Assembly: GCA_963805085.1 (NCBI GenBank)
Contig: CAWDTA010000001.1
Location: 1-64,000, forward strand
Length of the DNA: 64,000 nucleotides
Direction of reading: 5' to 3'
Source of the DNA: an uncultured Veillonellaceae bacterium
GTDB lineage: Bacteria > Bacillota > Negativicutes > JARBTT01
Part shown: positions 51,107 through 53,710 of the stretch, in pieces
How positions within the stretch are numbered: the first letter of the stretch is position 1
How the letters are laid out: each line of letters opens with the position of its first letter
Notes under the pieces: model-generated
What the model was told of the DNA's origin: nothing
The model's input: the letters and a program-made list of their open reading frames with translations, nothing else
The model's database searches: none
Program-made: the position numbers and the translations under genes

Positions 51107-51158
51107 GGCGATGGAGTTCGCCATTAAGTCCGTTTTATAGCGGTGATGACTCCTACTA
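51107..51158 (+). ncRNA. fluoride (crcB) riboswitch
   Basis: GGCGATGGAGTTCGCC...GGTGATGACTCCTAC; pseudoknot GGAGT/ACTCC; operon ends in crcB. Confidence 0.93.
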
Positions 51159-51191
51159 GTACACTTTACTAGTAGGAGTCTTTTGTTTTTT
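51148..51191 (+). terminator. riboswitch-controlled terminator
   Basis: GACTCCTACTAGT-ACACTTT-ACTAGTAGGAGTC-TTTT overlaps the aptamer 3' strand. Confidence 0.88.
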
Positions 51192-51212
51192 AACAGAGAG
51201 AGGAGAGATATT

Positions 51213-51908
51213 ATGAACTACTCAAATGAAGTAATGACAATGTGTAAGGTGGCCAAGGGACCTAATCATGGGGCTGCCCCTATTCCACAAGAAGGACAAT
51301 GGACGAAAGTAAAAGAGGTCAAAGATGTAAGTGGCTTAACTCATGGGGTTGGCTGGTGTGCTCCACAACAGGGTGCCTGTAAATTAACCATAAATGTTAA
51401 AGCTGGAATTATTCAAGAAGCACTAATTGAGACGATTGGTTGTTCAGGTATGACTCATTCAGCTGCGATGGCCTCTGAAATTCTTCCTGGTAAAACAATT
51501 TTAGAAGCTTTAAATACAGATTTAGTTTGCGATGCGATTAATACAGCTATGCGTGAACTTTTTCTTCAAATTGTTTACGGAAGAACCCAAACTGCTTTTT
51601 CTGAAAATGGTTTACCAATTGGAGCAGGCTTAGAAGATCTGGGCAAGGGACTAAGAAGCCAAGTTGGGACTATGTATGGAACTCTTGAAAAGGGTCCAAG
51701 ATATTTAGAATTGGCAGAAGGATATGTTACTAATATTGGATTAGATGAAAATAATGAAATTATTGGTTATAAATTTGTTCATCTTGGTAAAATGATGGAG
51801 ATGATTGCAAAAGGCATGGATGCCAATGAAGCATTAAATAAGGCTTCCGGTAAATATGGACGATTTGATGAATCGGTTAAGGTAATTGATCCAAGACATG
51901 AAAAATAA
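51213..51908 (+). CDS. NifU/IscU-like Cys protein, GGGtGRT partner
   Basis: GWCAPQQGACKL, IGCSGMTHSA, DLVCDAIN; AGGAG RBS. Confidence 0.8.
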   Translation: MNYSNEVMTMCKVAKGPNHGAAPIPQEGQWTKVKEVKDVSGLTHGVGWCAPQQGACKLTINVKAGIIQEALIETIGCSGMTHSAAMASEILPGKTILEALNTDLVCDAINTAMRELFLQIVYGRTQTAFSENGLPIGAGLEDLGKGLRSQVGTMYGTLEKGPRYLELAEGYVTNIGLDENNEIIGYKFVHLGKMMEMIAKGMDANEALNKASGKYGRFDESVKVIDPRHEK

Positions 51909-51924
51909 TAAGGGGGAGAAAAAT

Positions 51925-52926
51925 ATGGTTATGTTTGAAGGCTATGAAAGACGTATCGGTAGTATTAATAAAGTATTGAAACAATATGATATAGAATCGC
52001 TTGAAAGTGCTAAAGAAATCTGTGATAGCAAAGGTATTGATGTACATCAAATTGTCAAAGAAATTCAACCGATTTGTTTTGATAATGCATGTTGGGCGTA
52101 TACTTTTGGAGCCGCGATTGCAATAAAGAAAGGCTATACCAAAGCAACTGAGGTTGCACTGTCATTAGGTGAAGGTTTACAAGCATTTTGTATTCCAGGT
52201 TCGGTTGCTGACAATCGCAAAGTTGGTCTTGGCCATGGAAATCTGGCGGCAATGTTACTCAGTGAAGAAACAAAATGTTTTGCTTTTCTAGCTGGGCATG
52301 AGTCTTTTGCTGCAGCTGAAGGTGCAATTGGTATTGTTAAATCTGCTAATAAAGTAAGAAAACAGCCATTACAAGTTATTCTTAATGGTCTTGGGAAAGA
52401 TGCTGCACAAATTATTTCACGTGTTAATGGATTTACATATGTGCAGACTAAATTTGATTATTACACCAGTAATTTAGAAATAATCAAAGAACTTAAATAT
52501 TCTTCTAGTGAACGAGCAAAAGTTAGGTGCTATGGCGCGGATGACGTTATGGAAGGCGTAGCAATTATGTTTAAAGAAAATGTCGATGTATCAATTACAG
52601 GTAATTCAACAAATCCGACACGGTTTCAACATCCAGTAGCTGGAACTTATAAAAAAGAATGCATCGAACAAGGAAAAAAGTTTTTTTCAGTTGCTTCCGG
52701 TGGTGGAACAGGAAGAACGCTGCATCCTGATAATATGGCAGCAGGACCAGCATCGTATGGTATGACAGATACAATGGGAAGAATGCATTCTGATGCACAG
52801 TTTGCTGGATCATCCTCGGTTCCAGCTCATGTAGAAATGATGGGATTAATTGGCATGGGGAATAATCCTATGGTTGGTGCTAGTGTAGCAGTGGCGGTAG
52901 CGGTTGAAGAAGCATGGAAAAAGTAG
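51925..52926 (+). CDS. GGGtGRT-family protein (function unknown)
   Basis: SVASGGGTGRTLHPDN signature; FLAGHESFAAAEGA; GNSTNPTRFQH. Confidence 0.92.
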   Translation: MVMFEGYERRIGSINKVLKQYDIESLESAKEICDSKGIDVHQIVKEIQPICFDNACWAYTFGAAIAIKKGYTKATEVALSLGEGLQAFCIPGSVADNRKVGLGHGNLAAMLLSEETKCFAFLAGHESFAAAEGAIGIVKSANKVRKQPLQVILNGLGKDAAQIISRVNGFTYVQTKFDYYTSNLEIIKELKYSSSERAKVRCYGADDVMEGVAIMFKENVDVSITGNSTNPTRFQHPVAGTYKKECIEQGKKFFSVASGGGTGRTLHPDNMAAGPASYGMTDTMGRMHSDAQFAGSSSVPAHVEMMGLIGMGNNPMVGASVAVAVAVEEAWKK

Positions 52927-52966
52927 CAGTATAAAAATAATTAAATCATCAAAGGGGAAAAATAAA

Positions 52967-53314
52967 ATGCCTAAAATTGCGAGTAAAGCAAAACGATTAA
53001 GCATTTATATTGGTGAAAGTGATCACTATAAACGCCAATCATTATACAAAAGTATTATAGCTAAAACGAAAGAGTTAGATATGGCTGGTGCCACCGTTTT
53101 TAGAGGTATAATGGGATATGGTGCTGATAAACGTATTCATACGGCAAGTTTAGTTGATTTGTCTAGTGATTTACCTGTGTTAATTGAAATTATTGACAGT
53201 GAAGAATATGTTGCAAAATTATTACCCTACTTAGATGAAATAATGGGAAAGGGGTTAGTTACTATTGATGATGTCGAAGTACTCAAATATGGAACTAAGC
53301 CACCAACACGGTAA
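52967..53314 (+). CDS. DUF190 (PII-like) protein
   Basis: IYIGESD, AGATVFRGIMGYG, LSSDLP; typically crcB-linked. Confidence 0.9.
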   Translation: MPKIASKAKRLSIYIGESDHYKRQSLYKSIIAKTKELDMAGATVFRGIMGYGADKRIHTASLVDLSSDLPVLIEIIDSEEYVAKLLPYLDEIMGKGLVTIDDVEVLKYGTKPPTR

Positions 53315-53332
53315 AGGAGAGATCTAGATTAC

Positions 53333-53710
53333 ATGTTAGGAGTTTTTTTAGTCGCAATTGGTGGAGGACTTGGAGCTGTTAGTCGTTATCTGGCATCAAA
53401 TTGGATGGCTTCACGATTCGGTGCCGATTTTCCATATGGAACACTATTAGTCAATGTCATTGGGTGTTTTATTATTGGTTTATTTATGGCAATGACTATA
53501 GATCGCTTAAATATTAGTCCTTACTGGCGATTGTTTATTACTGTAGGATTTTTAGGCGGTCTTACGACCTTCTCCTCTTTTAGCTATGAAACTTTACACC
53601 TTTTACAGGAAGCTGACGTTATGCGTGCATTTTATAATGTCGGACTTAATTTATTTGGTGGATTTTTCGCTACATGGTTAGGCTTTGGAGTTGCTAGGCT
53701 TATTGGGTGA
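53333..53710 (+). CDS. crcB: fluoride channel Fluc/CrcB
   Basis: GGGLGAVSRY, FPYGTLLVN, GFLGGLTTFSSF. Confidence 0.96.
   Translation: MLGVFLVAIGGGLGAVSRYLASNWMASRFGADFPYGTLLVNVIGCFIIGLFMAMTIDRLNISPYWRLFITVGFLGGLTTFSSFSYETLHLLQEADVMRAFYNVGLNLFGGFFATWLGFGVARLIG

Follow-up and report, generated by a model that had tools for sequence, protein, structure and literature searches.

A fluoride riboswitch leads a four-gene operon encoding a NifU/IscU-like protein, a GGGtGRT protein, a DUF190 protein and a CrcB fluoride exporter in the stretch of DNA analyzed here, 64,000 nucleotides (nt) of an uncultured Veillonellaceae bacterium (assembly GCA_963805085.1, contig CAWDTA010000001.1, positions 1 to 64,000, forward strand; hereafter the window). 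Comparative evidence, as far as genome sequences go, ties the first two genes, the NifU-like/GGGtGRT pair, specifically to the enolase step of glycolysis and to fluoride. We consider it likely that the pair has some role in lower glycolysis that permits enolase to be lost, while gene content and structural models leave the chances evenly balanced that it is a direct functional replacement of enolase. Our most specific proposal is a tentative one that falls short of even chances, namely that the two proteins form a heterodimeric 2-phosphoglycerate dehydratase that is not homologous to enolase, depends on iron or iron-sulfur and is proof against fluoride. Such a second kind of enolase would be widespread and abundant in anaerobes, would explain most enolase-negative gut, rumen and termite-gut bacteria, and would have been recruited by the riboswitch as a glycolytic bypass.

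Among more than 30,000 isolates, those without enolase make up less than 0.5% and are for the most part rumen Butyrivibrio, Prevotella and Lachnospiraceae, and a comparison of enolase-positive with enolase-negative strains found no complementing function (Seshadri et al. 2018, PMC6118326), the null result that is expected if both groups carry the pair. Since at least 2012 authors have remarked that enolase is absent from Butyrivibrio, Oscillibacter, Prevotella/Segatella, Endomicrobia and others; this absence was called unexplained as late as 2024 and is treated as unsolved (PMC6118326, PMC11187502, PMC3558957, PMC11257099). The genome note for O. valericigenes suggested "an alternative enolase-like enzyme", a study of Endomicrobia termed the loss perplexing, and a 2026 preprint proposes ppdK and pckA routes for S. 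copri, whose type strain lacks eno. The GGGtGRT protein of S. copri is abundant enough to have been the antigen of a monoclonal antibody, its function being described by the authors as unclear; rumen metaproteomes contain GGGtGRT proteins from Pseudobutyrivibrio and others, and they rank among the highly expressed gut and rumen proteins. In the article portions searched, no function is assigned to the GGGtGRT/NifU-like pair.

Enolase loss and gene position

An earlier reading of the locus from its letters alone (the sequence-only reading) had suggested that the pair might substitute for enolase and should be enriched in genomes lacking eno. This expectation holds. Of 151 sampled genomes from the class of the window, 55 carry the pair and 96 do not; enolase is missing from 9 of the former and from 4 of the latter, and these four are only 72–84% complete; among genomes at least 90% complete (high-quality Clostridia) the counts are 7/50 with the pair and 0/75 without. 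The corresponding figures are 4/32 and 3/169 in Bacteroidales, 7/46 and 0/7 in the family of genome G152 (where no genome lacks both), and 6/13 and 11/188 in Spirochaetota. Pooling the four samples gives 26 enolase-lacking genomes among the 146 with the pair and 18 among the 460 without it, corresponding to a stratified Mantel-Haenszel odds ratio of 7.4.

The pattern is specific to enolase. Phosphoglycerate kinase (PGK), used as a control, is absent from 3/201 spirochaete genomes and from none of the six that carry the pair and lack enolase; across pair-bearing genomes without enolase, PGK was found in 7/7 tested and pyruvate kinase in 5/5. Spirochaetota were profiled with Enolase_N at E ≤ 1e-10 and the other samples with Enolase_C, and Enolase_N is likewise absent where Enolase_C is absent. 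In the G152 family, G675, whose 45-amino-acid (aa) remnant contains a stop, and G701, with a 23-bit match from a 360-aa open reading frame (ORF) that recurs as a second match in G699–G703, were scored as lacking enolase; G682, where a frameshift splits the gene in two, and G696, with a piece of 107 aa, were scored as positive. Partial enolase matches in G009, G030, G062 and G112 were also scored positive, as was the pair in G900, where GGGtGRT is represented by 74 aa at the start of a contig. A phylum sample around G151 (locus L079) contains the pair in 9/301 genomes, and the 19 genomes of its order all have enolase; this sample, having no enolase profile, stands outside the enolase statistics.

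Looking up PGK in the enolase-lacking genomes located pgk 3 kb upstream of the GGGtGRT gene. Four genomes without enolase (G012, G099, G111 and G142, all 99–100% complete and bearing four genus labels) share the order gap-pgk-tpiA-gpmI-NifU-like-GGGtGRT as judged by Pfam and tblastn. The order in G146 is gap, pgk, tpi, gpmI, pair, eno, and in locus L058 it is pgk, tpi, gpmI, pair. In these orders the place that eno takes in the classic Firmicute glycolytic operon is filled or adjoined by the pair, a line of evidence that the sequence-only reading had not foreseen. Both enolase-lacking operons that were examined for it additionally carry, directly upstream of gap and on the same strand, a gene for a radical-SAM protein of ~465 aa (PF04055 + Fer4_12; L113:1336-2745 and L114:1486-2880), which may be a maturase for the pair or a coincidence.

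This operon and phyletic evidence fixes the pathway neighborhood of the pair but not its reaction, and a glycine-rich loop with conserved Arg and Lys, as is found in GGGtGRT, suits any phosphorylated substrate. If the pair were a central-carbon enzyme that acts near the enolase step in another reaction (2- or 3-phosphoglycerate straight to pyruvate, or some other bypass step), eno loss would still be allowed and the enzyme would be useful under fluoride. We regard this as unlikely, because all five enolase-lacking, pair-bearing genomes keep pyruvate kinase, so that phosphoenolpyruvate is seemingly still a glycolytic intermediate, and because the pair immediately follows gpmI, the gene for the enzyme that makes 2-phosphoglycerate, and in G146 immediately precedes eno.

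The two proteins and their predicted complex

A scan for relatives, taking one genome per species, was positive for at least 594 of 600 candidate stretches, and the locus counts given here refer to the best 80 loci. Their GGGtGRT proteins are 77–83% and their NifU-like proteins 72–85% identical to those of the window. The NifU-like gene is the immediate upstream neighbor of the GGGtGRT gene in 76 of these loci, the four exceptions starting at a contig edge; the two genes are an obligate unit. This unit spans Bacillota, Bacteroidota, Fibrobacterota, Desulfobacterota, Myxococcota, Spirochaetota and others, and the titles of the 80 records name Clostridia, Bacteroidales, Fibrobacteres, Desulfobacteraceae, Myxococcales, Spirochaetales, Holophaga, Victivallales, Eggerthellaceae and more.

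The NifU-like protein is laid out as an N-terminal IscU-like domain (~100 residues) followed by a beta-rich C-terminal domain of ~100 aa that matches no Pfam family. Residues C49, C56, C77, C106, H44 and H82 are invariant in an alignment of 23 sequences with a mean column identity of 83%. All scores against curated models lie below the cut-offs: the NifU_N score (Table 1) against 22, NifU_clost 24.7 against 187.9, iscU 21.4 against 192.4 and SUF_scaf_2 17.1 against 92.5. A sequence search of the PDB returned IscU matches at E ~1e-3, and the top Foldseek matches of the model (predicted local distance difference test (pLDDT) score 69.9) are all IscU, ISCU or SufU, with E-values of 7e-3 or worse, a probability of ~1 and a template modeling (TM) score of ~0.5 on the target. 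In sequence and in model the N-domain appears to resemble IscU weakly but consistently, and we propose the NifU-like protein as the putative metal or iron-sulfur (Fe-S) subunit.

The predicted IscU-like fold and the Cys set, together with the database name NifU, also suit a role in Fe-S or metal handling (as a scaffold, carrier or repair factor) that is induced because fluoride disturbs metal enzymes and is linked to enolase indirectly, through an anaerobic gut lifestyle. Strong iron-dependent expression of the pair in B. thetaiotaomicron and C. pasteurianum is in keeping with such a role; in the former, low iron lowers BT0173-74 11- to 12.8-fold (PMC10434189), a decrease that also counts in favor of the enolase proposal. 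We nevertheless consider it improbable, as the IscU, NifU and SufU models all score below their curated cut-offs and neither a cysteine desulfurase nor another Fe-S assembly gene recurs near the pair in the 80 loci (3.5 kb on each side, cluster representatives annotated). The position next to gpmI and the enolase-specific pattern seen against the PGK control would both be left unexplained. No neighbor of ~400 aa recurs beside the pair in this census either, and the 80 loci contain no informative conserved neighbor: the commonest family is an ABC ATPase (11 loci), others found are an integrase, a response regulator, FtsX, M23 and VanZ, and 360 of the 449 neighboring ORFs are singletons.

GGGtGRT matches PF14057 over its full length (profile positions 1–327 of 327), its start having been fixed by alignment of homologs (MVMFEGYERR). 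The alignment has a mean column identity of 80% and 66 invariant columns, among them S258-G263-R264-T265, H104, H267, H302 and K243-K244; invariant His, Asp, Glu, Lys and Arg are dense around S258-GGGTG-R264-T265, and the protein contains no Cys cluster. The protein has no solved relative and no recognizable fold. A search of 1.84 billion representatives gave 1930 matches, nearly all of them fragments of the GGGtGRT family, with only two divergent full-length members (54% and 49% identical) and no distant known superfamily; a protein atlas search yielded no usable match. The single PDB sequence match (E 0.76) was rejected. We propose GGGtGRT as the candidate catalytic or substrate-binding subunit.

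Complex prediction for NifU-like with GGGtGRT gave interaction prediction scores from aligned errors (ipSAE) of 0.71, 0.35 and 0.77 in three runs (median 0.71), compared with 0.00 for the best of three controls; the runs share at least 29% of contacts and the partner pLDDT is at least 69. In calibration, 58 out of 80 solved complexes attained the mark of the tool, as did 2 out of 110 mismatched pairs; these counts are a rough guide here, as custom alignments were used. The two-subunit assembly suggested by the sequence-only reading is in this way recovered as a predicted heterodimer. The modeled interface sets C49, C77, H82 and C106 of the NifU-like protein against the invariant G124-H-E-S-F-A129 and R166 of GGGtGRT, which points to a composite site between the two proteins in the model.

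Predicted fluoride control of the pair

The leader of the operon (51058–51190) contains a complete fluoride aptamer, which covers model positions 1–64 of 64 and scores 50.7 bits in Rfam (gathering threshold 34, E 4.2e-11). It is the only fluoride aptamer in the 4.2 Mb assembly, and aligned with 26 others it keeps the invariant core. Its last 15 bases overlap the 5′ arm of the intrinsic terminator (Table 1), so that the terminator competes with the 3′ part of the aptamer, with crcB downstream, as expected of an expression platform. Scans for consensus sites are non-significant by themselves, both for promoter-like sites (15 compared with 12.3 ± 3.7 in shuffles) and for terminator-like sites (3 compared with 1.5 ± 1.4). 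Judged by its sequence architecture, a transcriptional ON switch is a well-supported reading of the leader. The genes follow with intergenic gaps of 16, 40 and 18 nt. DUF190 is the usual companion of crcB and the two form the usual export module (among the 29 riboswitch loci of the class, 7 have DUF190 next to crcB); riboswitch and export module of the window are ordinary.

Table 1. Leader elements and genes of the riboswitch-led operon, in window coordinates
Feature	Position	Strand	Basis
Promoter-like site	51058-51087	+	TTGACC, 18 nt, TATAAT; TG precedes -10; consensus matches 11/12
Fluoride riboswitch aptamer (crcB motif, RF01734)	51098-51162	+	Rfam
Intrinsic terminator, 14-bp stem (6 G-C pairs), 5-nt loop, T-run tail TTTTGTTTTT	51148-51180 (annotated as far as 51190)	+	
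NifU/IscU-like protein, 231 aa	51213-51908	+	NifU_N 21.9 bits; motifs
GGGtGRT protein (PF14057), 333 aa	51925-52926	+	Pfam 654.5 bits vs cut-off 27
DUF190 (COG1993, PII-like) protein, 115 aa	52967-53314	+	125.4 bits vs cut-off 23.4; weak P-II match
CrcB/Fluc fluoride exporter, 125 aa	53333-53710	+	Pfam CRCB 111.8 vs 32.9; TIGR00494 119.2 vs 80.45

The sequence-only reading had described an intact fluoride aptamer with an overlapping terminator ahead of a tightly spaced four-gene operon, the motifs CAPQQGAC, GCSG and LVCD in the NifU-like protein and the loop SGGGTGRT in GGGtGRT, with DUF190 and crcB after the pair. The Rfam match, the terminator and the short gaps bear out the first part, all of the motifs are present in the translations, and the Pfam and TIGR00494 scores place DUF190 and crcB above their cut-offs. 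Contents and positions of the locus are as it gave them apart from the start, 51107, which lies 9 nt inside the Rfam match. It had also expected the linkage of riboswitch, crcB and pair to recur in other genomes, which is what the class sample shows.

Within the 151 genomes of the class a fluoride riboswitch is present in 60, GGGtGRT in 55 and both in 22 (three of the 22 with sub-threshold riboswitch matches only). In 8 of these 22 (G000, G010, G013, G031, G034, G043, G044 and G092) the riboswitch lies directly before the NifU-like gene, and the eight carry four family and seven genus labels. The four-gene order of the window is repeated in G092 and G034, G043 reads pair, DUF190, crcB, crcB, DUF190, and in G013 the riboswitch and pair are followed by a second riboswitch and a Na+/H+ exchanger. 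A ninth genome, G048, has the pair at the end of a longer operon (riboswitch, USP, DUF190, crcB, a 157-aa ORF, pair). Our own covariance model (R1), built from 27 aptamers and run over 86 loci (876 kb), yielded an independent operon in L038, where the riboswitch is followed by PAP2, HAD-like, PAP2, crcB, DUF190 and sulfatase-like genes and then the pair. The link between pair and fluoride is genuine, has arisen more than once and is a minority state. In a Myxococcales metagenome-assembled genome the same model found two divergently oriented fluoride aptamers (31.3 and 26.5 bits; L015:9385-9616), which lie downstream of the pair at a distance of 2.4 kb.

The operon of G092 (L125, G092:C190:1-3577) encodes proteins 97–99% identical to those of window positions 51098–53710 and comes from a genome with a different family label (f6), while the same-genus genome G001 has neither riboswitch nor GGGtGRT. 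Given these two observations and an assembly that is 83% complete with 6% contamination, the window contig may be mis-binned, or the locus may have been transferred recently.

By the same coordinate criterion, a fluoride riboswitch directly precedes an enolase paralog in 10 genomes of the class, so the pair, with 8–9 genomes, is about as frequent a riboswitch target as enolase. These enolase paralogs (G010, G023, G031, G050, G054, G059, G060, G110, G132 and G136) are distinct and lower-scoring (~390–440 bits), most matching model positions 3–287 or 3–288 and that of G132 positions 3–294. G010 and G031, with 10 fluoride riboswitches each, have both a riboswitch-controlled enolase paralog and a riboswitch-controlled pair. 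Alternatively, the pair could have some other function, either as an enzyme that fluoride itself inhibits or in sensing or regulating the state of glycolysis, and be over-produced to compensate in the manner of enolase and pyrophosphatase. This would match the over-expression of inhibited enzymes that is often the logic of these riboswitches (review PMC11139923), the joint control seen in G010 and G031 and the signaling read-out of the B. thetaiotaomicron phenotype described below, but it is very unlikely, since it fails on the preferential loss of eno, which in high-quality Clostridia occurs only where the pair exists, and on the position in the eno slot.

Upstream of the operon and outside it lie genes for a MarR-family regulator (49179–49631) and, directly before the leader, an S-adenosylmethionine (SAM) methyltransferase fused to a GNAT acetyltransferase domain (49670–50923). 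Downstream, four cobalamin riboswitch matches on the + strand (53951–54132, 55315–55453, 59132–59314 and 61959–62140, scoring 116, 41, 106 and 108 bits), the first of which precedes a CbiK cobalt chelatase gene (54270–55304), mark what looks from these matches like a B12-regulated cluster. A glmS ribozyme/riboswitch match lies at 31389–31540 on the + strand (97.6 bits, gathering threshold 37).

Proposed mechanism, counter-evidence and known systems

We propose that in the absence of fluoride the 14-bp terminator would form, and that with fluoride bound the aptamer would hold the 5′ arm of the terminator and allow read-through into the four genes. CrcB, with DUF190, would then export fluoride, and the NifU-like protein and GGGtGRT would assemble into a heterodimeric enzyme. 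Its IscU-like subunit would supply a Cys/His-bound iron or iron-sulfur site set against the GGGtGRT pocket, where the glycine-rich loop together with Arg and Lys would hold the phosphate and the carboxylate of the substrate. Such an enzyme would perform or directly replace the enolase step (2-phosphoglycerate to phosphoenolpyruvate) by a mechanism that avoids the Mg2+ pair poisoned by fluoride and phosphate in enolase; the Fe-S cofactor and the dehydratase chemistry are inferred. In the window genome, where a normal enolase is also present, the pair would serve as a bypass induced by fluoride. Constitutive expression of the pair in many anaerobes of gut and rumen would provide a second enolase-type activity there, which would have permitted the repeated loss of eno.

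Several observations weigh against this proposal. The genome of the window has a normal enolase (467.5 bits) and is itself no case of substitution, and 120 of the 146 pair-bearing genomes retain enolase as well, so that redundancy must be assumed. Conversely, 18 enolase-lacking genomes are also without the pair. PGK is kept in 10 of the 11 spirochaete genomes that have neither enolase nor pair, suggesting that these absences are probably real, and because of these ten the pair is not the sole answer to enolase loss. The association p-values (for high-quality Clostridia, one-sided Fisher p = 0.0013) ignore relatedness and overstate significance, and completeness figures are lacking for the genomes reached through loci. 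All five enolase-lacking genomes tested have MGS-domain matches and three of the five have small ORFs compatible with MgsA, so a methylglyoxal bypass may be a possible alternative in such genomes. Riboswitch control of the pair is confined to 8–9 of the 55 pair-bearing class genomes and 1 of the 80 cross-phylum loci.

The chemistry meets objections of its own. A set of four invariant Cys would more commonly coordinate a closed cluster, while the cluster of Fe-S dehydratases has one iron left open. A Foldseek search with the GGGtGRT model (pLDDT 76, predicted TM score 0.79) returned no match at E ≤ 0.001, and no likeness to hydro-lyases was found in its sequence or fold. Residues 227–306 of GGGtGRT (window 52603–52842), which include NSTNPTRFQHPVAG, the GGGTGRT loop and the run MTDTMGRMHSDAQF to HVEMM, are the most conserved stretch of the protein, yet AlphaFold2 models them at pLDDT below 50; on this model the stretch may fold only with its partner, a cofactor or the substrate. 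Finally, although the recovery of BT0173-4 transposon mutants alongside pfkA in a glucose-signaling screen of B. thetaiotaomicron is in favor of the proposal, the mutants grow normally and show only a modest 2-fold effect (bioRxiv 10.64898/2026.04.10.717545).

Separately, PGK is present while enolase and the pair are both absent in G721, G737, G766, G809, G826, G846, G853, G868, G891 and G903 (Spirochaetota) and in G587 (Bacteroidales), and these genomes point to another enolase-free way of life or to assembly gaps.

Taken together, the idea of an enolase substitute stands as regards gene position, phyletic pattern and the presence of the flanking glycolytic steps, and it does not stand as regards a sole substitute. 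Since most pair-bearing genomes have enolase and some enolase-lacking genomes have no pair, the pair is best read as a second route and not always as the sole substitute. Enolase is regarded as near-universal, and a two-gene candidate makes the long-standing question of the missing enolase testable at the bench. Should the proposal hold, central metabolism would gain a new enzyme family, a protein that is one of the highly expressed ones in metaproteomes of gut and rumen would have a function, and gap-filling in the metabolic models of many gut microbes would be corrected. Fluoride resistance would then also gain a new form, one that works around the poisoned enzyme in place of exporting fluoride or making more enzyme, with a bearing on oral and gut microbiology and on the engineering of organofluorine metabolism.

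The operon shares its leader, its ON-switch architecture and its DUF190-crcB module with standard fluoride-riboswitch operons (review PMC11139923), a group in which crcB, DUF190, Na+/H+ antiporters, phosphatases and enolase occur. In related loci, genes for USP, PAP2, HAD and a Na+/H+ exchanger are present as well. It differs from known fluoride operons in having the NifU-like/GGGtGRT pair as riboswitch-led genes; the pair is not named as a fluoride-riboswitch target in the article texts searched, as available (supplementary gene lists and Baker et al. 2012 were outside this scope). The same literature search did not find the fluoride riboswitch together with iscU and returned nothing relevant for DUF190 with fluoride.

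The NifU-like protein appears to resemble IscU, NifU and SufU (PF01592, TIGR01999, TIGR03419, TIGR01994) weakly over its ~100 N-terminal residues, in its predicted fold and in having Cys at putative ligand positions. It differs from them in a fourth invariant Cys, in the extra C-terminal domain of ~100 aa, in always occurring with GGGtGRT and in having no desulfurase linkage, and its sequence is without the LPPVK-type motif that is the chaperone motif of IscU. Fe-S hydro-lyases such as two-subunit L-serine dehydratase, class I fumarase and aconitase remove a beta-hydroxyl next to a carboxylate using a cluster iron as Lewis acid; they are oxygen-sensitive enzymes of anaerobes for which Mg- or cofactor-independent isozymes exist, and some have two subunits of similar size. 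For the pair they are a chemical precedent only, as no sequence or structural relation was found and the cluster in the pair is putative.

Enolase itself (EC 4.2.1.11; PF03952, PF00113), whose site contains two Mg2+, is matched by the pair in the proposed reaction, in pathway position and in placement under a fluoride riboswitch. The two are not homologous, neither protein of the pair matching the enolase models of Pfam or NCBIfam, and unlike enolase the pair has two subunits, a putative IscU-like Cys/His site and iron-responsive expression.

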